Below are positions 2,899-60,762 of a stretch of 64,000 nt of DNA, one piece after another. The notes below the pieces were generated by a model. The model searched no databases and was not told the DNA's origin. It worked only from the letters and a program-made list of their open reading frames with translations. Numbering within the stretch: the stretch's first letter is position 1; the number at the start of each line of letters is the position of its first letter. Made by a program: the position numbers and the translations under genes. Source of the stretch: Candidatus Omnitrophota bacterium (lineage in GTDB: Bacteria > Omnitrophota > Gorgyraeia > B26-G9). The DNA lies in contig JAHITE010000080.1 in the NCBI GenBank assembly GCA_018817585.1, forward strand, positions 5,774-69,773. The letters are read 5' to 3'.

Positions 2899-5094
2899 TT
2901 ATTTGTTTTGTAATTCTTTGAGCTCAATTTTCGCGAAAACACGCAAAGCCTTAGGTTCAGCCGGGAAAAACAGTATTTTGCGTTTATGCTTAATTTCCTT
3001 TAGCACGCTGATTGTTAGTTCCTTGTCCAAACTGCGCAAAGATTTTAAAGCCGCAACGCGGATATCAATATTTAACAGCTCATTATCGCACATAGCCTCC
3101 TGTCCACGGGCAATCAAAGCAATGGTGGAACGCACTTCTTTATATCTAAAACCAGCTAAATATTCAATGCAGACAATGCGCAAAGCAATGAGCTTATGCC
3201 CCAAAATTTGCAAGAGCATGTTTAAAGCCGCGTGTGATTTGCGGTTGGCAATCAGCTTTAAAGCTCGTTGCGCTAAAATAATATTTTCATGAAACAATAT
3301 CGGCCAGACCAAAGGCAGCGCGGCATCATCATTAATTAGCTGCATTAATTCCAGTAAACGTAAAATGCTGTTGGTTGGCTCCTTGCATAAATCGATGTTT
3401 AATTTTAAAGCAGCAGTGCTATATTGCTCTAGAATAACTTGTTTAATTATTGTATCTTTGGATAAGTCACCTTTTTGCGTGTATAGTCTAAGGAGTAAGG
3501 CGATCAGTCTGTGTGAAAACAGGATAAATAAATCTTGTAAACAAAGTTTGGTTTTTGTTTCGGAATAAGTTTTAGTCATTTCTAAGATAAATTTTTCAAT
3601 CAGTGCTTCGGGAAAATGCTCCAAAGCATCCGCGATAAATAGTTTGTGCTCAGTAGTGATTAAAGACTCTGGTTTAAGTTGTTCCGCGAAAAAGTTAAAG
3701 GATTGACTGCTTTGCTCCAGGTCAGAACCGTGTAAAATACTTTTGGTTATTTGCAGGCATTTATCCAGCAAATCATTAAACACGGGGGTTTCTAATGGGT
3801 CAGACAATAAAGCGTGCAGGATTTCCAGATGTGCTGGAATCTCAGAATATTCTTCGATATATTTTTTTAAAATATCTTTTTCAAAGTGTACGGTTTTTAA
3901 TACATTTAAACCATCAATAATGTCGATTTTTTCTTCAGAGGTTATGGCGCCTAAAGCCAGGTCCACATTATCTTCCAGAGAAAGGCCAGGAGCAAAAGCC
4001 GAACAGATGTCATTTAAAATCGAAGAGGTTTTATCGGAATGCTCTAATCCGGTTTGCAGGGCCTGCTTGAAAGCCGGAAGAAAATTTAAAAAAGCGCTGC
4101 GGTCAATAAACACTCTGCTTAAGACATGTTTGGTATGCGCTATAATACTGAAAGTTTGATTTGATTCAGCGATTTTTTTAACAAACAATTTCGCGGTTTG
4201 CCCGGGGCTCATTTGTTCAAGTAGATAATTAGCGGCTTGCGTGTATTGGAGGATTTCTGCGTCGGGATCTTCAAATACCAAATCAAATAATGTTTCATTG
4301 CCGAACGCGGCAATTAAATCTTTTAAGATTGTATGGATTTCTTCTTCTTCAGAAAGTTCCAATGTGGTAATCGCGATTTTAATTTTATTTAGAATTTTAA
4401 GAATTAACTGGTTTTCACCCAGAGCAGAGGTTTGTTTTCTAATACTAAACTGCGAGGCAATTTTAATCAATTCGCAGACCAGTTGTGACTCTTGAAGCAA
4501 TTCATATAGAAAATGAGTTTGTTCAGAATCTAAAAAAGGCATCTCGTCGTCAGTAAAATAACGAAAGATAATACTGTTGGTTAAACTCAGCAAGCGCTCC
4601 TGATCCAGGGTGGAGTGTTTGCTGGAATAATATTCAATAATCCGAATTCCTTTGGAGCCTTTTTGAATTAAAATTTTACCCGCTCCACCCAAAGACGATA
4701 TTTTGCTGGTTTCAAAATTAAAGATTTCTACTAAAAGATCAATGTCAGTTAAGTTGGTGGCTGGATTGAAAATGATTTGGCGGATATAACGTTTTTGCAT
4801 TTCTTCAATAAAATCATCAATCCCCGGCAGCTTTTGATTATCCAAATGAATATCCAGAATATAAAGATTATTTTCATAGATGCGGAATACCGCGATTTGT
4901 TTTTGCGCGATAACTTCCTGAAGGGTTGTGTAGAATTTTTCTACAACTTGACTGAGCATTTGATGTCCGCGCGGATAGAGATGGACTGCTTTTAGCATGC
5001 CGAATAAACTCGCCGCGATTTGGCTGGCAAGTTTTATTTCCGCGGCAGTGTGTTCATGTTTATTCTGAGCTGTGTTTTGATCCATAAAAGGCAT
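2899..5094 (-). CDS. large HEAT/ARM-like repeat protein, probably co-transcribed with the HD-GYP gene
   Basis: 731-aa ORF with helical repeats near the C-terminus (PBS-lyase/HEAT-like). Tightly linked upstream of the HD-GYP gene on the same strand. Confidence 0.5.
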   Translation of the reverse strand: MPFMDQNTAQNKHEHTAAEIKLASQIAASLFGMLKAVHLYPRGHQMLSQVVEKFYTTLQEVIAQKQIAVFRIYENNLYILDIHLDNQKLPGIDDFIEEMQKRYIRQIIFNPATNLTDIDLLVEIFNFETSKISSLGGAGKILIQKGSKGIRIIEYYSSKHSTLDQERLLSLTNSIIFRYFTDDEMPFLDSEQTHFLYELLQESQLVCELIKIASQFSIRKQTSALGENQLILKILNKIKIAITTLELSEEEEIHTILKDLIAAFGNETLFDLVFEDPDAEILQYTQAANYLLEQMSPGQTAKLFVKKIAESNQTFSIIAHTKHVLSRVFIDRSAFLNFLPAFKQALQTGLEHSDKTSSILNDICSAFAPGLSLEDNVDLALGAITSEEKIDIIDGLNVLKTVHFEKDILKKYIEEYSEIPAHLEILHALLSDPLETPVFNDLLDKCLQITKSILHGSDLEQSSQSFNFFAEQLKPESLITTEHKLFIADALEHFPEALIEKFILEMTKTYSETKTKLCLQDLFILFSHRLIALLLRLYTQKGDLSKDTIIKQVILEQYSTAALKLNIDLCKEPTNSILRLLELMQLINDDAALPLVWPILFHENIILAQRALKLIANRKSHAALNMLLQILGHKLIALRIVCIEYLAGFRYKEVRSTIALIARGQEAMCDNELLNIDIRVAALKSLRSLDKELTISVLKEIKHKRKILFFPAEPKALRVFAKIELKELQNK

Positions 5095-5730
5095 CCCCTA
5101 ATCAGGTTAATATTATAGCAAATAATATTAAATGAATAAAGGAAAAAAGCGCCGCTTGATTCAGCCTGATATTGTGGAGAGAGATGATCTATAAAAAATG
5201 GTCTTGACATTGGGGAGAGGCATAGAGCGTCTAAAGTAGTAAATTCTTTTTCAAGCCCTTCTTGGCCAATAATGCCAAATTACTCACTTGTTCCTCTGTA
5301 ATATTGCTCATAGTCAAAACTACTTTAATAACAGCATGTTACCTCTGTTACTACATATATAGCCATAAGTTTGGAGATATAGGAAGTTTATTGGCGTAAT
5401 AAATAGGGGCAAAATAAGAGGAGAAAAGATGGCAAAGATTATACACGTAGTTTACAAGAAGGGAAAATGCTAATCATCCAAAGGCAAAGACTTTAAGAAA
5501 AAACTGGATGATATTCAAGCCTGAAAATACGAATAGTGAAGGGGAAAAGATTGTTTTCCCCTATCGGCGTGCTGGAACTTCCTGCTATGAACCAGAGCAT
5601 AGCTCGATTCATGGTTAGCGCAAGGAGGGAAACATAAGGGTTCCTCTTTAAGGAGTGAGTGGCCCTGTATTTCAAGTGAAACGATACGACAGGTTTGGGG
5701 GAAGCGAAAGTCCTCGCAGATTGTAAACAA

Positions 5731-6470
5731 GGGACAGCGACTAGTTTTTATTGACAACAACATAGGTTATTTGTATGATGGTTGTATGCCAAGAATAGCC
5801 AGAGTAGTTGTGAAAGATTGCCCGCATCATATTACCCAGCGAGGTAATTATAAACAAATAACTTTTTCTGAAGACAGTGATTATCAGCGATATCTGGAAT
5901 TGATAAAAGAATATAGCGATAAAAATAAACTGTTGATAATCAGTTATTGTTTAATGCCCAACCATGTGCATTTCATTGCAGTTCCTATAAATCAGGATTC
6001 TTTTGCCAGAACGTTTAATTCGGCGCATATGAGGTATTCTCAATATTATAATAAGAAGAATGGAGTCAGTGGTCATTTATGGCAGGGAAGATTTTATTCT
6101 TGTGCGTTGGACGAGAAGCATTTATATGAGGCAGTAAGATATGTCGAAAATAATCCGGTAAGGGCCGGTTTGGTGATGAGTGCGAAAGATTGGAAATACA
6201 GTAGTGCAAAAGCGCATGGATCAGGCAACAGTAGCTTAGGAGAGTTAACGTTATTAAAGATTAACAGGTATGTTCAGGTAGCAGATTGGGATAAATATTT
6301 GAATGAAAGAACAGATGGGGCAGTAGTAGAATTAATTAAAGGAAATACGTTGACGGGAAGACCCTCTGGTAGTTCAAGTTTCGTTCGGAAATTGGAGCAG
6401 GTGTTTGGAATGAGGTTGACTCCTTTGTCAGAAGGGCGGCCCAAAAAGGCTAAAAACTAGTCGCTGTCCC
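5731..6470 (+). mobile_element. RAYT/IS200-like element bounded by perfect 19-bp terminal inverted repeats
   Basis: gggacagcgactagttttt at 5731-5749 and its exact reverse complement aaaaactagtcgctgtccc at 6452-6470 flank a single Y1 (HuH) transposase gene. Confidence 0.7.
5771..6460 (+). CDS. REP-associated tyrosine transposase (RAYT), IS200/Y1 transposase family
   Basis: HuH motif (NHVHFIAVP) and a downstream conserved Tyr region (RYSQYY...HLWQGRFYS...VENNPVRAGLV), characteristic of COG1943/Y1_Tnp. The true start may be the ATG at 5786. Confidence 0.8.
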   Translation: MYDGCMPRIARVVVKDCPHHITQRGNYKQITFSEDSDYQRYLELIKEYSDKNKLLIISYCLMPNHVHFIAVPINQDSFARTFNSAHMRYSQYYNKKNGVSGHLWQGRFYSCALDEKHLYEAVRYVENNPVRAGLVMSAKDWKYSSAKAHGSGNSSLGELTLLKINRYVQVADWDKYLNERTDGAVVELIKGNTLTGRPSGSSSFVRKLEQVFGMRLTPLSEGRPKKAKN

Positions 6471-6501
6471 TAGTTATGGGGCAGAAGAAAGGGGATAGAT
6501 T

Positions 6502-9500
6502 ATGAGGAAAATATTGTTTGCTTGTTTAGGATTAATGATCGGAGTGTTAAGCATTATACCGTGTGTTGGGGCAAAAGAAGTGGATATGTGTATTGCTTCT
6601 AAAACAATGTGTATGCCCAGCTATGTGGTACAGGAGGCTGCTTACATTGGTAAGGTAGAAGATGCTACTGTGTTTGTGGATACAAAATTAAAGATTGAAG
6701 TTTTAGCTGAGCAGCAGAGTAGCGTTCCTTTGTTTACTCAGGATGTGGCAATGATTAAAACCGCTTTACCTAAAGGCGTATTGCTGCTGCAGCGAGAAGG
6801 CAGGTATAATCTGCTTTTTCCGGGTAAAGGCAGTTATTCTGTTGGACTGCAATTCACCGCCTTGGTTAATCAGAAAAGTGATCGTAATATGCTGAATCTT
6901 GAGGTATTTCCGTCAGCGATTTCCACATTACAATTGGTGTTCGAGGGGATTGATCTGGATATTCAAAGCAGTCCGGCAATGAGCACGCAGATAAAAGCCA
7001 AAGGTAAAAACACGGAATTTACAGCTTATTTGGGAGCGGCTAAACAGATTGAAGTGAGTTGGTTTGCCAAGCCTACGGCTTTAGCCAAAGCAGATCTTTT
7101 GTTTAATTCAGAGAATAATACTCTGATTACTATATCCTCTGGCGTGATTAATACCCGGACTTTTTTAAATTACAAAGTTATTCAGGGGAAACTTTCTCAA
7201 TTTAATGTGTCTTTGCCGGAAAATATGAATCTGTTGACTGTTAAAGGCGAAAACCTGAAAAACTGGACATTAAAAAAAGAGAAGAATAAGCAGATTCTTA
7301 GCGTGGAATTAACAAAGGAAATCTCCGATACATATCAATTAGTGCTGGACGCGGAAGAAATAAAAGATAAGATTGAAGGTAATTATAGCACGTCGGATAT
7401 TATTTCTTTAGACTCTGAAAGGGAAAATGGCTATTACGCGTTTAAGGTAAAAGATGATTATAAACTGCGTTCTTTGCAGCGCGATGGAGTTAGTCAGCTG
7501 AATATCGCGGAATTACCGCAACAGCTAAAAGATGCCGGAGACGGCGAAGCAAATATTTCTTTAGCGTATCGTTTTTTACGTGATCCTAAAGAACTGATGA
7601 TTAATATTGAGAAAACAATGCCGGAAATATCCGCCCGGAATAATGTTTTTCTTGATGTGTCAGAAGAAGTAATGCGGCTGCTGATTATGACTGATTATAA
7701 GATTGAGAAAGCAGGGGTGTTTAATTTTAATCTGGAATTGCCCGGCGATATGGATGTTATTGATGTTAAAGGTTTAAATATTGAAAACTGGAAAGTAAAT
7801 CAAAAAGGGAATAGGCAGGATCTGGAAATCCAGCTGCGCACTAAGGCCATCGGGGATTATCGCTTATTAGTTAAGCTGGAAAAGCCGGTAAAAGATATTT
7901 ATCAGGATATTCAGATGCCGCAGGTAAATGTTTTAAATGTGGATAAGCTGACGGGTTTTATTGGTGTGGCTTGCGAGAGCAGTATTAATCTTAAAACAAA
8001 ACACCGCGGTAAGCTTACGGAAACAGCTTTATCAGATTTAATCGAGATTCCCGGGGAGAAAATCTATCCGAACTTAGCGTATAAGTTTATTACCCAGCCT
8101 TATGAACTGCAGCTGGCAGTAGAAAAGGTTGATCCGCGGGTAATGGCGGATGTCTTTACCTTTTTATCAGTGGGTGAAGGTTTGGTCCTGGTTAATTCAG
8201 CGGTAACATTTGATGTTTTATTTGCCGGAGTTGATCAGTTTGAAATTGTCTTACCTAATGATGTCAGCGGAGTGGATATCATGGGACAGGGAATTAAAGC
8301 CAAAGCAGAACGTTTAGAAGAAATGGATGTAAACGGTCAGAAGAAAAAAGTAAAAATATATACGATTTCTTTACATTCTAAAGTAAAGGGCAAGTATAAT
8401 CTTTACTGTGCCTATGAAAAAGTATTAAAAAATCTTTCGGAAAAAACAGAAATGCCGGCATTTCAGGTTCTTGGGGTCGAACGTCAGACCGGCAGTGTGG
8501 CCATTGGTCCAAGGGCAAATGTGGAAATTGAATTAGTTAATATTGACGGGGCCAGCCAGGTAGATGTTAAGGAATTACCGCAGGATAAACTTGCCGGCGC
8601 GGATATTCCGATATTATACGCTTTACAATATGTCCGCTATCCATATAGCGTGGGCTTAGACATTAAAAAGCACGAAGATGTCGCGGTATTGGTGGCGGTA
8701 GTTGAAGCAGCAAATATTACAACTGTTTTAGGTAAAGACGGGCAGATTATTGTCAGCGCGAAGTATCAGATTAAAAACAGAACAAAACAGTATTTAGACA
8801 TAGCTTTGCCTAAAAATGTGGAAATCTGGAGCACTTTTGTTGACGGCAAAGCGGTAAAACCCGCGAAAACCGAAGAAAATAAAATATTATTACCCTTGGT
8901 TAAGTATGAAGAAAAAGACCGCAGTTTTCCTGTGGAAATAATTTATGAAGTTAAGCGTTCTAAATTTTTCCTGTTTGGCAGGATAAATCTTACTGCGCCG
9001 CAGTTTGATATTCCGCTGACAAATGTTACCTGGGATGTGTATATGCCGTTTGGTTATAATTATTTTAATCTTAGCGGTAATCTGGAACCAGGTACAAGAG
9101 TTTTTGCTCAGGGCAGATGGAGGCAGCCGCAGGAACATATGGATAAAAGGATTATTGGCGGACTTAATGTTGAAAAGCTTGGGAGAGACATGCCCGCCAG
9201 GTCGCAAGAACTAATGGACTATGAGACCTGCGCGGATACATCGTTTTGTGATTTAAAAAAAGAAGCCTATACGCAGAAGCCCGCGCCAGAAATCTGGCAG
9301 AAAAAAGACCAGACATTTGTCTCAAATATAAATACTCAGACCGCGCGTTATAATCAGCAGTTAGCTCCGTCAAAAACCAAGCAAGTGGCAACCAAAGGCA
9401 GACAAAAAGGGGTATTACCGATTCATATTACCATTCCGACTGGAGGCAAACTCTATACATTTACCAAATTAATCAGCCGGGAGCAGCTAAAGATACATGC

Positions 9501-9633
9501 TTTTTATACTAAGAAATCAGGCAGACTATTGTTTTTGATTATTTTGTTCGCGGGCATCGCAATAATTATCCGCTATAAACAAAATGTAATAAAAACAATC
9601 CAAAATCTCAGCAGAAAAAACAAGCCGGAATAA
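6502..9633 (+). CDS. large secreted or surface protein with about three internal repeats of ~130 aa and a C-terminal TM anchor
   Basis: N-terminal signal peptide (MRKILFACLGLMIGVLSIIPCVGA). Repeated ...NLKNWTLKKEKNKQILSVELTK... / ...NIENWKVNQKGNRQDLEIQLRTK... / ...GQKKKVKIYTISLHSK... modules. C-terminal hydrophobic helix followed by a basic tail. Confidence 0.6.
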   Translation: MRKILFACLGLMIGVLSIIPCVGAKEVDMCIASKTMCMPSYVVQEAAYIGKVEDATVFVDTKLKIEVLAEQQSSVPLFTQDVAMIKTALPKGVLLLQREGRYNLLFPGKGSYSVGLQFTALVNQKSDRNMLNLEVFPSAISTLQLVFEGIDLDIQSSPAMSTQIKAKGKNTEFTAYLGAAKQIEVSWFAKPTALAKADLLFNSENNTLITISSGVINTRTFLNYKVIQGKLSQFNVSLPENMNLLTVKGENLKNWTLKKEKNKQILSVELTKEISDTYQLVLDAEEIKDKIEGNYSTSDIISLDSERENGYYAFKVKDDYKLRSLQRDGVSQLNIAELPQQLKDAGDGEANISLAYRFLRDPKELMINIEKTMPEISARNNVFLDVSEEVMRLLIMTDYKIEKAGVFNFNLELPGDMDVIDVKGLNIENWKVNQKGNRQDLEIQLRTKAIGDYRLLVKLEKPVKDIYQDIQMPQVNVLNVDKLTGFIGVACESSINLKTKHRGKLTETALSDLIEIPGEKIYPNLAYKFITQPYELQLAVEKVDPRVMADVFTFLSVGEGLVLVNSAVTFDVLFAGVDQFEIVLPNDVSGVDIMGQGIKAKAERLEEMDVNGQKKKVKIYTISLHSKVKGKYNLYCAYEKVLKNLSEKTEMPAFQVLGVERQTGSVAIGPRANVEIELVNIDGASQVDVKELPQDKLAGADIPILYALQYVRYPYSVGLDIKKHEDVAVLVAVVEAANITTVLGKDGQIIVSAKYQIKNRTKQYLDIALPKNVEIWSTFVDGKAVKPAKTEENKILLPLVKYEEKDRSFPVEIIYEVKRSKFFLFGRINLTAPQFDIPLTNVTWDVYMPFGYNYFNLSGNLEPGTRVFAQGRWRQPQEHMDKRIIGGLNVEKLGRDMPARSQELMDYETCADTSFCDLKKEAYTQKPAPEIWQKKDQTFVSNINTQTARYNQQLAPSKTKQVATKGRQKGVLPIHITIPTGGKLYTFTKLISREQLKIHAFYTKKSGRLLFLIILFAGIAIIIRYKQNVIKTIQNLSRKNKPE

Positions 9634-25897: not shown

Positions 25898-25934
25898 GAA
25901 TAAAGTGGACTTTTTCTAAATACTGTTTTGTGTA

Positions 25935-25957
25935 GGGGCCGGTCCCTGTGCCGGCCC
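25935..25957. repeat. GC-rich REP-like hairpin (ggggccgg-N8-ccggccc) between convergent genes
   Basis: 7-bp GC stem. Same family as 36534-36556 (both preceded by tgtagg). Confidence 0.5.
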
Positions 25958-36442: not shown

Positions 36443-36533
36443 AGTACGAAGCGCGTGCTTGGCTGATAGCTGATGATAGCTCATGGCCAGAAGCAAAAGA
36501 TATAAGGACACCAGGACACAAGGTCACAATGTA

Positions 36534-36556
36534 GGGGCCGCGCTTGTCCCGGCCCC
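36534..36556. repeat. GC-rich REP-like hairpin (ggggccg-N9-cggcccc) between convergent genes
   Basis: Related to 25935-25957. Immediately preceded by a GGTGAC-family repeat copy (36507-36530). Confidence 0.5.
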
Positions 36557-36580
36557 TAATAATATACTCGAAACAATTAG

Positions 36581-57101: not shown

Positions 57102-59195
57102 ATGGCACGTTTAATCGAATTAGATAAGGTAAGAAATATTGGCATCATGGCGCATATTGACGCGGGAAAGACTACGGTAACCGAAAGAATATTGTTTTAT
57201 ACCGGCAGATCGCATAAGATCGGTGAAGTACATGACGGTAAAGCGCAGATGGATTGGATGAAGCAGGAACAGGAAAGAGGGATCACGATTACCTCCGCGG
57301 CGACAACCTGCGCTTGGAATGGACATAAGATTAATATTATTGATACTCCCGGTCACGTTGATTTTACCGTAGAAGTTGAGCGTAGTTTGCGAATCCTTGA
57401 TGGCGCAGTTGCCGTGTTTTGCGCGGTTGGCGGTGTAGAACCTCAGTCGGAAACAGTTTGGAGACAATCTGATAAATATCAAGTCCCAAAGATCGCGTTT
57501 ATTAATAAAATGGATCGGATTGGTGCTGACTTTTTTTCAGTTGTAAAAAACATTGAAGATGATCTTGGGGCAAATGTTATTCCCTTGCAGATTCCGATGG
57601 GCGCGGAAGATCATTTTATTGGAATTATTGACTTGCTGGAAATGCAAGCCTGTATTTATGAAGATGATTCACAAGGTAAGAATTTCCGGTTGGAAGCGAT
57701 TCCCGCGGAGTACGCGGAAAAAGTTAAAGAATTTCAGCATAATTTGCTGGAAAAAGCTGTGGAATTAGACGATAGTTTAATGGAAAAATATTTAGAAGAC
57801 GAAAATTCTATCACTAAAGAAGAGCTGATTGCCGCGATCCGCAAAGGAACAATTGCTAATAAAATTGTTCCGGTTTTGTGCGGTTCGGCATTTAAGAACA
57901 AAGGTGTGCAGAGATTGCTGGACGCGGTTACTATGTATCTGCCATCGCCAGTTGATTTGCCGCCGGTTGAAGGTCATGATCCGGATGATGTAGAAAAGAA
58001 AATTCTTCGCAGGCCTGATGATAATGAACCCTTTTCCGCGCTTGCTTTTAAAATTCAGGCTGATCCGCATATGGGGAAATTAGTATATTTCCGGGTTTAC
58101 TCCGGAACAATCAAAGCCGGCACCTATATTTATAATTCAACTAAAGGCAGAAAAGAAAGAGTCGGCCGTTTGATGCAGATGCATGCTAATACCCGGGATA
58201 TGCGCGAAGAGATTTGCGCTGGGGATATCGCGGCGGTTGTTGGTTTAGATCGCACGATAACCGGGGATACGCTTTGTGATGAGGATAATCAGGTTGTGCT
58301 TGAGGCCATGGAATTTCCCGCGCCGGTTATGTCTTTGAGTATTAAACCGCAAAGTCGTCCGGATCAGGATAAGCTGGGCAAAGGCTTGATGCGCTTAGCT
58401 GAAGAAGATCCGACTTTTACAGTGCAAACAGATAAAGAGACTGATGAAACTATTCTTTCCGGAATGGGAGAATTACATCTGGAAATCATTGTCGACCGCT
58501 TAAAGCATGAATTTAAAGTAGAAGCAGTTGTTGGAAAACCAAAGGTTGCTTATCGGGAGACAATCACCGCTAGTGCTACTGAAAACTATAAGCATGTTAA
58601 GCAAACAGGTGGTAAAGGACAGTACGCGCATGTGGTGCTTAAGATTTATCCTGCTGAGCCGGGACATGGTTTTGAGTTTGTCAATAAGATTACCGGAGGA
58701 TCAATTCCCCGGGAATATATTCCGGCGGTTGAAAAAGGGGTTATTGAGAGAATGCTAAAAGGAAGTTTTGCCGGATATCCAGTTGTCGACGTTATGGTTG
58801 AATTAACTGATGGTTCTTACCATGATGTTGATTCTTCAGAAATGGCGTTTAAAGTCTGCGCGTCAGAGTGTTTTAAACGCGCGTTTATGAATGCGTCACC
58901 AATCTTGCTGGAACCTTATATGTCTATTGAAGCCTCATCTCCGGAAGAATATACCGGATCTGTAGTTGGCGATATGTGTTCCCGCCGCGGAAAAGTATTG
59001 GGCATGGAAATGAAGGCTAAACTGCAGATTGTCTCAGCAGAAGCTCCGCTGTCAGAAATGTTTGGATATGCCAGTGCCTTGCGTTCAATGAGCAGCGGCA
59101 GAGCGAATTATTCAATGCATTTTGAAAAATACATTGAAGTTCCTTTCTCGATCGCGGAAAAGATTATTGAAGAGAAAAAGCAGGTTAAAAAGTAA
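57102..59195 (+). CDS. fusA: elongation factor G, stand-alone copy
   Basis: [27 protein letters not shown] and the full five-domain length (697 aa). Not within a str/S10 operon context in this window. Confidence 0.9.
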
Positions 59196-59362: not shown

Positions 59363-59370
59363 TTTCAGTA

Positions 59371-59472
59371 GGGACAGCCCTTGCGGCTGTCCGATATAAA
59401 AACAATATAAAATCAGCGGAATTGGGACAAATTATTGATAAACGGACAGGGGCAAGCCCTGTCCCTACTTGC
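59371..59472. repeat. REPIN-like doublet: two GC-rich hairpins in inverted orientation (tagggacagcc-cttgc-ggctgtccg ... cggacaggg-gcaagc-cctgtcccta)
   Basis: The outer arms agtagggacag / ctgtccctact are mutually complementary. Each unit is itself a hairpin and shares GGGACAG with the RAYT terminal repeats. Confidence 0.55.
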
Positions 59473-59517: not shown

Positions 59518-60762
59518 ATGATTATCCGCAGTGCGCAGCATAGTTTTAAGCAGACTTTTGATAATAGCACGCAGCCAATGTTGTTAGCCGACGCGCGATT
59601 AGAAAAAGTTCACGCGATAAATGCTGCCGCAGCCATCATCCTGGGATACCCTTTGGACAGATTAAAGCAGATAGGTATAAGCGATATTATGCAGATTAAG
59701 GATGAGCAGAAACAAAATATTCAATTAAGCTATTTATTTGGGAAAAATCAAAGATTTAAAACCAGTTTTTGTTTTATGCGTCAAGATAAAACTGTGTTTT
59801 GCGCGACTTGCCTGATTACTCTGGTTTGCGGTTCAGATAAAAAGCGTTTAGCTTATTTATTCAGCATTGAAAATATGAATCAATGCCGCCAAGAGCATAT
59901 TTGCAATTTGCTGGAGGCGGAAAAAGAAAAGATAAAACAGTTATTATTTTCAACCGAGTCCAGGCTAAAAGCGATTTTTAATTCCGCCAGTGACTGCATA
60001 TTTATTAAAGACCAGGAGTTAAGATATATTGATGTTAATCCCCGCATGGAGAAAAAATTCAAGATGCCTTTGTCTACAATCAGGGGCAAAACCGATACAG
60101 ATCTTTTTGGCAGCCAGGCCGCCCGGGAGAATGAAGAAGTCGATAGGCAGGTATTGCAAGGCAAAACAATGAGTTTCGAGCATAACAAAAATATAAATAA
60201 TATACCAAGCACTTTCCATATAATCAAGGTCCCGATTAAAGATAAACAAAACAAGATTATTGGTATCTGCGGCATTGCCCGGGATATAACCTCGCGCAAA
60301 CAATCAGAGGATGCTTTAAAAAAATATGAAATTCAGTTAGAAGCCCAGAATAAAGTTTTAATGATTAAAAATCTTGCCTTAAAGGAAATAATATCGCAAA
60401 TCGAACAGGAAAAAGATAAGGTTAAGCAGGATATTATTGGTCATATAGAGCAGGAGATTTTACCTTTACTGGGTAAGGTTGCTTTAAGAGGCCGGGCGGA
60501 AAAATATATTATGCTGATCAAAAAACATTTAACTGAGCTTAATAGTTCTTTGCGTTCCTCAAAGCAGGCCGCGGATTATAATTTTACTCCCAGAGAAGCG
60601 GAAATCTCCCGATTAATTCGTGACGGTTTGACCAGTAAAGAAATCGCCCAACTTTTAAATATTACCAGCCAGACAATTGATAAACATCGGCAGAATATCC
60701 GAAAAAAACTGGGAATTGATGATCAGGCTATTAATTTAACTTCTTATCTGGCAAAGCGATAA
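59518..60762 (+). CDS. PAS-PAS sensor fused to a LuxR-type HTH transcriptional regulator
   Basis: Two PAS-like segments and a C-terminal FTPREAEISRLIRDGLTSKEIAQLLNITSQTIDKHRQNIRKKLGI (GerE/LuxR HTH). Confidence 0.8.
   Translation: MIIRSAQHSFKQTFDNSTQPMLLADARLEKVHAINAAAAIILGYPLDRLKQIGISDIMQIKDEQKQNIQLSYLFGKNQRFKTSFCFMRQDKTVFCATCLITLVCGSDKKRLAYLFSIENMNQCRQEHICNLLEAEKEKIKQLLFSTESRLKAIFNSASDCIFIKDQELRYIDVNPRMEKKFKMPLSTIRGKTDTDLFGSQAARENEEVDRQVLQGKTMSFEHNKNINNIPSTFHIIKVPIKDKQNKIIGICGIARDITSRKQSEDALKKYEIQLEAQNKVLMIKNLALKEIISQIEQEKDKVKQDIIGHIEQEILPLLGKVALRGRAEKYIMLIKKHLTELNSSLRSSKQAADYNFTPREAEISRLIRDGLTSKEIAQLLNITSQTIDKHRQNIRKKLGIDDQAINLTSYLAKR

Follow-up and report, generated by a model that had tools for sequence, protein, structure and literature searches.

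The question raised by this locus is what kind of unit is formed by a small transposase gene that lies between two inverted copies of one short sequence. The window, i.e., the whole stretch of 64,000 nucleotides that was analysed, comes from a contig (JAHITE010000080.1) of a Candidatus Omnitrophota bacterium, and the unit in question spans about 750 bp (5726–6475) and consists of one Y1-type tyrosine transposase gene and its own 25-bp arms. In a preliminary description it was proposed to be a tyrosine transposase associated with repetitive extragenic palindromes (REPs), known as a RAYT, flanked by REP palindromes. This overall interpretation stands in part: the protein is RAYT-like rather than IS200-like, and palindromes carrying GGGACAG do exist elsewhere in the window, but the flanks are terminal inverted repeats (TIRs) and not REPs. 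The unit is thus, with high confidence, identified as a TIRtron, that is, a member of the group of RAYT-like genes with long TIRs in place of REPs for which the names TIRYT (the gene) and TIRtron are used by Di Nocera, De Gregorio & Rocco 2013 (PMC3733652). Its components are as follows:

5726..5750, + strand: left arm (terminal inverted repeat), AACAAGGGACAGCGACTAGTTTTTA; its core of 19 nt at 5731–5749 is perfect and includes the family-wide GGGACAG
5751..5779, + strand: putative sigma-70-type promoter, with TTGACA at 5751–5756, a 17-nt spacer and TATGAT at 5774–5779 (consensus score 11/12)
5786..6460, + strand: TIRYT / RAYT-like HUH-Y1 gene of 224 aa (open reading frame, motifs, profiles, predicted fold)
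6451..6475, − strand: right terminal inverted repeat, reading AACTAGGGACAGCGACTAGTTTTTA on that strand (inverted-repeat match, family comparison, folding)

A single open reading frame (ORF) of 229 aa had been described between the arms, and one ORF is indeed present there; however, a 224-aa product that begins at ATG 5786 (MPRIAR...) is likelier than one from TTG 5771, the ATG being the start used by all relatives and the beginning of a conserved family N-terminus, and the gene ends with the TAG at 6458–6460. The HVHF motif was recorded correctly; the HUH motif in full reads NHVHF, and the catalytic tyrosine is Y119 within RYVENNP. The protein carries N59-H60-V61-H62, W99-Q100, Y119-VEN-N123-P124 and S139-S140, and its tail at the C-terminus contains a pair of conserved GRP motifs; when 27 homologues are aligned, H60, H62, W99, Q100, Y119, N123, P124, S139, S140 and both GRP motifs are invariant. 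The sole Pfam family detected is Y1_Tnp (PF01797, 1.2e-13), and the top NCBIfam match is REP_Tyr_transpos at 71.3 bits, under the equivalog cut-off of 80, while transpos_IS200 scores 19.9 bits against a cut-off of 55 that is not reached. A database search gives more than 7,900 matching proteins at E ≤1e-5, the best of them 55–68% identical, about 220 aa long and chiefly from metagenome-assembled genomes (MAGs) of Omnitrophota, Ratteibacteria and Auribacterota.

The AlphaFold (AF2) model of the protein is of good quality by its own scores (pLDDT 88, pTM 0.86), and its best Foldseek match in the PDB is 4er8_A, the E. coli TnpA-REP with a REP hairpin (E 4e-9, TMt 0.74), followed by the IS608 and then the ISDra2 transposases; a profile search of PDB sequences returns the same order, with 4er8 first. 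The proposed RAYT rather than IS200 lineage is therefore borne out by the Y---NP motif, by scores of 71 versus 20 bits and by 4ER8 as the best structural match, and the gene is predicted, from sequence and model, to encode a RAYT-like HUH/Y1 single-strand DNA endonuclease with an intact catalytic set. For the C-terminal region (about 85 aa), Pfam gives no family match in any of the 27 proteins, and the distal tail of about 50 aa is conserved; a model of the C-terminal part alone reaches a pLDDT of 62, too poor for a fold search.

The inverted repeat itself was described accurately: GGGACAGCGACTAGTTTTT occupies 5731–5749 and its exact reverse complement 6452–6470, and the match lengthens to 25 nt at 96% identity (5726–5750 / 6451–6475). 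With ≤3 mismatches allowed, the 19-mer has two sites within the window, which are the two arms, and none of 100 shuffled controls gave two matches. The right arm covers the last three codons of the gene plus its TAG stop, and a weak 6-bp hairpin (AACTAG/CTAGTT) is possible within it. Neither a target-site duplication nor a conserved target sequence can be seen at the element. The description of the flanks as REP palindromes, on the other hand, does not survive, as each arm folds weakly as a single strand (−0.6 to −2.6 kcal/mol, no better than shuffles, against −9 kcal/mol for true REP hairpins) and the arm sequence is not repeated elsewhere in the 64 kb. Arms in the form of stable REP hairpins were considered and rejected, and because the single-strand folding is no better than that of shuffled sequences, the window arms are not called REPs; the flanks are terminal inverted repeats of the type described for TIRYT genes.

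The same arrangement recurs across the family. For this comparison, 80 homologous loci were taken from one-genome-per-species contigs (GC 32–71%; protein identity 42–60%) of Omnitrophota, Nitrospirota, Planctomycetota, Acidobacteriota, Thermodesulfobacteriota, Alpha- and Gammaproteobacteria, Firestonebacteria and others, and an inverted repeat brackets most of the 80 genes. Exact GGGACAG is found ≤170 nt upstream in 54/75 usable loci and CTGTCCC around or past the stop codon in 48/74, each against a background of 1.8%, and the two occur together in 41/69 loci. Their positions are also constrained, with GGGACAG clustering at −61..−50 from the ATG (30/75 loci) and CTGTCCC at −16..+14 of the stop (31/74); the core in homologues thus lies about 55 nt before the ATG, which matches the placement of the left arm in the window. 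The bases 3′ of the core vary by lineage (cgaccattt, tcacctattt, acggaacgttt, tttacttaatt), with left and right arms in agreement at each locus. Since arm pairs match within each locus while differing between lineages, the alignment of these sequences indicates that both arms are under joint selection. For example, the relative L088, with a 65%-identical protein, has an identical 21-nt arm, AACTAGGGACAGCGACTAGTT, on both sides, and a homologue on a Pseudomonas aeruginosa plasmid (32% identical) has TIRs of 37–38 nt with GGGGACAG and a right arm that lies over the stop codon.

Some self-complementarity is present around GACAG, in that a perfect stem of ≥6 bp occurs in 41% of 103 family arms versus 8% of shuffles. 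At two loci (L022 and L077), each side of the gene carries a full palindrome, about 50 nt in length, in which two arms face each other in inverted orientation, and at another (L049) the gene is flanked by tandem arrays of GGGGACAG-N6-CTGTCCCC hairpins; the flanks of these three loci are intermediate forms between TIRs and REP/BIME arrays, where BIME denotes the bacterial interspersed mosaic element.

The promoter listed above is the top-scoring promoter-like site of the region and directly abuts the left arm. Because its −10 box ends 6 nt before the ATG and a Shine-Dalgarno sequence is absent, the mRNA is predicted from the consensus promoter to be leaderless, with a start probably at or next to the A of the ATG; owing to such a leaderless start, the left arm would be left untranscribed and unable to pair with the right arm in RNA. 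This geometry is shared by relatives: a promoter scoring ≥9/12 lies within 45 nt of the ATG in 33/80 loci, compared with 1.7% of control windows, and among these 33, exact TTGACA is present in 24 and the −10 box ends 6–7 nt before the ATG in 27. No terminator was found 3′ of the TIRYT gene. The downstream gene, which encodes 1043 aa (6502–9633), has lost at 6476–6501 the TTGGAA...TATAAT promoter region that is kept in its orthologues, and because of this loss and of the lack of a terminator in between, its transcription probably begins at the TIRYT promoter or inside the TIRYT gene.

Among published systems, the TIRtron is the closest. According to PMC3733652, many TIRs of TIRYT genes share GGGGWSAS and sit at a similar distance from the gene, and some overlap the gene end; the TIRYT class is also reported not to be REP-associated (PMC6006769). 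The unit in the window resembles these in being a Y1 gene with long TIRs rather than REPs, with a motif at constant distance, an overlap with the 3′ end of the gene and an apparently low copy number, and the two marks of the class, TIRs in place of REPs and a GGGGWSAS-type motif at constant distance, are both found; many homologues carry GGGGACAG, an 8/8 match to GGGGWSAS. It differs in its host, an uncultured member of Omnitrophota, which is a phylum outside the original 26 examples, and in its abutting −35 box with leaderless geometry and its stop codon inside the arm, neither of which is seen in the available portion of PMC3733652.

Most TIRYTs have been placed by Quentin et al. (2018) in subclass 2.1 of the Y1 transposases (TnpAY1), which corresponds to Bertels' group 1 and is characterized by NHVH, W[EQ], Y---NP and an SS motif, a median length of about 238 aa, a low copy number and no REP (PMC6006769). 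Group 1 is the largest and most widely distributed RAYT group, is not associated with abundant flanking 16-mers and, among true RAYT groups, comes closest to insertion sequences (ISs) in character (Bertels et al. 2017; PMC5581495). The protein in the window shares the NHVH, WQ, Y---NP and SS motifs, a similar length (about 224 aa vs the median of 238 aa) and a proximal plus distal tail, and its family likewise has few copies per genome, is the most widely spread taxonomically, is found now and then on plasmids and lacks a typical adjacent REP; its tyrosine motif, by contrast, is YVENNP and not the listed YIELNP / Y[IV]HLNP. Membership in subclass 2.1 / group 1 is probable rather than proven because of the YVENNP motif and of the lack of a detectable helix-turn-helix (HTH) domain.

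Class 2 (TnpA-REP) is distinguished by Y---NP, in place of the Y---Q of IS200 transposases (PMC6006769), and two marks of class 2, HuH with Y---NP and a fold nearest to TnpA-REP, are both found here. The E. coli TnpA-REP (RAYT, YafM; 4ER8) is the best match in sequence and fold and is likewise a single-copy gene between inverted recognition sequences, with a TAG-containing 5′ part in the recognition sequence (GTAG in REPs, NTAG-GGACAG in the window). However, the two proteins are about 19% identical, an additional domain of about 85 aa is present at the C-terminus of the window protein, and the window flanks are neither stable GC-rich palindromes nor an abundant repeat family in the window; of the marks of a canonical RAYT/REPtron, neither a score above the NCBIfam equivalog cut-off nor abundant REP flanks within the 64 kb is found. 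With IS200/IS605 elements (IS608, ISDra2), the protein has in common the catalytic core of the HUH/Y1 type and its fold, and presumably also a chemistry that acts on single-stranded DNA, but those elements have Y---Q, multiple copies, no TIRs, same-strand subterminal hairpins and no C-terminal domain (PMC6006769), and the window unit shows neither Y---Q, nor an IS200 score above the NCBIfam cut-off, nor multiple copies in the 64 kb, nor TIR-less ends.

As to copy number, which the preliminary description had put forward as the point that separates RAYT-like from IS-like behaviour, one copy is present within the window and two assemblies share one context. The source, a 74-kb metagenome contig (ENA ERZ27247128), is assembled unbroken through both arms, and an independent Logan contig (SRR6514274, L087) is 100% identical over 5541–7179 with the same flanks on both sides. 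The latter was considered as a second copy and rejected, as it is the same locus in another run, and no further contig with an identical protein was found. Because the assemblies read through both arms, the presence of several identical copies is argued against. Similarly, the identical proteins of two relatives, P0069 (21 contigs) and P0044 (6 contigs), always lie in one neighbourhood each. Judged from the window and the two assemblies, the gene behaves as a stable single-copy resident. At the Acidobacteriota locus L068 (1013–1678, 3001–3666, 6391–6657), and at L066 and L073, 2–3 TIRYT copies or fragments lie within a few kb, in contrast to the single copies at other loci.

In the nearest relatives, orthologues of the 1043-aa gene (86–87% identity) have their own promoter and no TIRYT gene upstream, and homology to the window restarts some 15 nt rightward of the right arm; more distant orthologues (63–64%) likewise lack a TIRYT gene. 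From this absence at the orthologous site in relatives, the TIRYT unit appears not to be ancestral here. Because left-hand synteny differs in all relatives, no clean empty site is available and the comparison defines the right-hand boundary only. In the closest relatives (L082:3506–3658, L083:3505–3657; 87% orthologue), the orthologue of the 1043-aa gene is directly followed on its 3′ side by a truncated Y1 fragment, which measures 66 aa, is 38% identical to residues 13–64 and stops just past the HUH motif. Since such a fragment adjoins these orthologues, Y1 genes come and go around the 1043-aa gene.

In the wider surroundings, the neighbouring genes of the window recur at none of the 80 homologous loci, no tRNA or tmRNA that could act as an integration site is present in the 64-kb window, and no Rfam family is found in the window at gathering score, with nothing credible in 5050–6520 at E up to 1. 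The non-coding stretch of 630 bp to the left of the element was described as hairpin-rich; it is true that no long ORF occurs in 5095–5730, but the hairpin richness is unsupported (fold z −1.76, with 11/200 shuffles as good). Within this stretch, a 14-codon ORF, MAKIIHVVYKKGKC, lies at 5430–5474 (+) behind a strong Shine-Dalgarno sequence, AAGAGGAGA. Left of the TIRtron, a conserved non-coding element of about 180 nt (~5535–5717, +) is about 75% identical to L084:1265–1445 from a related Omnitrophota MAG. The L084 copy follows a tRNA-Ser(TGA) and a terminator, and at its end the 3′ end of that tRNA is directly repeated over 17 nt, which is att-like; the window copy has no such att-like end and no Rfam match.

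The GGGACAG palindromes that had been reported elsewhere in the window, at 59371–59472, are real and lie at 59368–59468. Both were characterized by hairpin scan, folding and metagenome pattern:

59368..59392, + strand: GTAG-tagged REP hairpin, 'CC' variant, GTAG-GGACAGCC-CTTGC-GGCTGTCC
59444..59468, − strand: inverted partner REP hairpin, 'GG' variant, GTAG-GGACAGGG-CTTGC-CCCTGTCC

Both hairpins are stable (−9 kcal/mol, z about −4.2); they are 51 nt apart and form a heterotypic doublet that resembles a BIME or a REPIN (a paired, inverted REP unit) in non-coding DNA between ORFs ending at 59195 and starting at 59518. Further GTAG-tagged GC-rich hairpins occur at 25932–25957 and 36531–36558 (GTAG-GGGCCGG...; GTAGGGGCCG...CGGCCCCTA), each between convergent genes, and of the five GC-rich hairpins that the window contains, four have the GTAG tag. 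When metagenome contigs were scanned for exact matches to GTAGGGACAG-SS-CTTGC-SS-CTGTCC, at least 120 contigs were returned. Among the matches listed, the carriers of the GTAGGGACAG pattern range from 35% to 60% GC, the variants are CC..GG (97) and GG..CC (34), i.e., compensatory forms only, and an inverted partner lies within ≤160 nt in 17 cases, 16 of which pair a CC arm with a GG arm. One gut organism has the hairpin at a dozen or more different sites, and the named carriers include Oscillospiraceae, Acutalibacteraceae and Candidatus Stahlbacteria. By their sequence pattern, the 59.4-kb palindromes belong to a real cross-phylum REP family, and the doublets recall the alternating REP types of BIMEs.

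What this REP family shares with the Y1 unit is a core of 9–10 nt, TAGGGACAG[C]; the right TIR and the 59.4-kb hairpins have TAGGGACAGC in common. No Y1 genes were found by tblastn and a family hidden Markov model (HMM) in 840 kb around the 120 REP copies listed, and REP-type hairpins are absent from 460 kb of TIRYT loci except at L049; literature searches with GGGACAG and GTAGGGACAG matched primers and unrelated papers only, and neither sequence is in the supplements of PMC3733652. A link between the REP family and the gene, for which this shared core is the ground, is possible but unproven.

The alternative taken from the preliminary description is that of a bona fide RAYT which chiefly replicates a REP/REPIN population, recognises (N)TAG-GGACAG, moves the GTAG-GGACAG hairpin doublets in trans and has its cognate REPs as flanks; it is compatible with the TIRtron explanation and, as an account of the locus, is considered unlikely, yet it stands well ahead of the other two alternatives. 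The right arm shares TAGGGACAGC with the doublet, and a positional 9-mer match of this kind would arise by chance at about 1e-3 by our own estimate, and the doublet comes from a dispersed family (at least 120 contigs) in which compensatory forms and heterotypic pairs (16/17, as in BIMEs) are the rule among the matches listed. TIR core and REP are both unusually conserved across phyla, the GTAG tag recurs on 4/5 GC-rich window hairpins, and full palindromes or GGGGACAG..CTGTCCCC hairpin arrays flank the genes at L022, L077 and L049. However, the window arms are neither stable palindromes nor found anywhere else in the 64 kb, in which there is just one GGACAG doublet; the protein scores 71.3 bits against the RAYT equivalog cut-off of 80, and the class is not REP-associated in published surveys (PMC6006769, PMC5581495). 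Neither search for co-occurrence is favourable, with no Y1 gene in the 840 kb around the listed REP copies and hairpins at L049 only in the 460 kb of TIRYT loci, and the REP is present in contigs of Oscillospiraceae, Acutalibacteraceae and Stahlbacteria.

An active autonomous IS, either of IS200/IS605 type or a new Y1 IS with TIRs that spreads through the genome by copying, would fit the compact layout of ends, promoter and one gene in about 750 bp, the absence of the element at the orthologous site of close relatives, the IS-like character of group 1 RAYTs and their presence on plasmids, the tandem or nearby extra copies at L068, L066 and L073, and the truncated Y1 fragment beside the same neighbouring gene in relatives. 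It is nevertheless regarded as very unlikely, in view of a single copy in the window that is assembled without contig breaks, identical proteins that stay in one context across 21 and 6 contigs, Y---NP instead of Y---Q, an IS200 score of 19.9 against 55, and the lack of a visible target-site duplication or conserved target sequence; IS200/IS605 elements, moreover, have same-strand subterminal hairpins and are without TIRs (PMC6006769). Least probable of all, with hardly any weight given to it, is a repeat that is not part of a mobile unit, either because the gene sits inside a pre-existing palindrome or because the arms are purely regulatory, the left as an operator and the right as an RNA or terminator element. 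Some ISs do insert into REP palindromes, according to the available part of PMC8450116, and the promoter does abut the left arm; but in dozens of phylogenetically distant loci the core is found equally far from the start codon and again over the stop, arm sequence and protein lineage vary together, the gene lacks a terminator behind it, and a leaderless start would leave the left arm untranscribed and thereby exclude RNA pairing with the right arm.

The TIRtron explanation, by comparison, can be formulated as a mechanism. The enzyme would recognise the arms by their GGGACAG, reading the top strand at the left arm and the bottom strand at the right arm, probably in single-stranded DNA. Binding at the left arm beside the −35 box would repress the gene's own leaderless transcript and hold expression low, while cleavage and rejoining at the arms would move the cassette rarely. 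Such rare movement could produce a patchy cross-phylum distribution together with stable residence at a single locus, as would be expected of an element that is domesticated or nearly dormant and not of an IS that multiplies; action in trans on the GTAG-GGACAG REP hairpins is a speculative addition. Taken as a whole, i.e., a TIRtron with this mechanism, the explanation is favoured with modest confidence; the mechanistic package of recognition, autorepression and rare movement, considered by itself, is tentative and falls somewhat short of an even chance.

Several points weigh against it. The single-copy status is that seen in a metagenome contig, and, as left-hand synteny differs in every relative, the absence of the unit from orthologous sites may reflect rearrangement instead of insertion. 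The window core, AGGGACAG, agrees with the published GGGGWSAS at 7/8 positions, and the C-terminal region of the protein shows no similarity by Pfam to Bac_DnaA_C, HTH_23 or HTH_28 (no HTH match in the 27 members at E up to 10), in contrast to the HTH similarity reported for the distal domain of subclass 2.1. The weak single-strand folding of the arms makes it uncertain whether they are recognised as hairpins, as in IS608 or REPs. Moreover, no biochemical or transcript experiments on TIRYTs were found in the searchable literature, and binding, autorepression, cleavage sites and mobility are all inferred.

A far-reaching extension would be that the TIRYT clade (more than 7,900 proteins) keeps its (N)TAG-GGACAG specificity over more than 10 phyla as the trans-acting enzyme of a pan-bacterial, BIME-like REP family, GTAG-GGACAG-CC/GG-CTTGC-GG/CC-CTGTCC (Omnitrophota, Oscillospiraceae, Acutalibacteraceae, Stahlbacteria), with a cassette that is self-repressing, leaderless and expressible in any host; this is offered as a long shot, improbable on present evidence. 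If the TAGGGACAG core does mark an enzyme–substrate pair, a class held not to be REP-associated would be linked to a REP population, and the pairing would also account for the conservation of the GTAG REP; otherwise, the locus is an ordinary, recognisable domesticated-transposase cassette. The locus adds an example from uncultured Omnitrophota to the computationally described TIRYT/TIRtron class, and a very clean one, in that the arms are perfect, the promoter is close to consensus and the catalytic residues are all intact. The comparative data add three regularities to what is described for the class, namely, a GGGACAG core maintained over 32–71% GC, a promoter and leaderless geometry fixed to the left arm, and a stop codon in the right arm.

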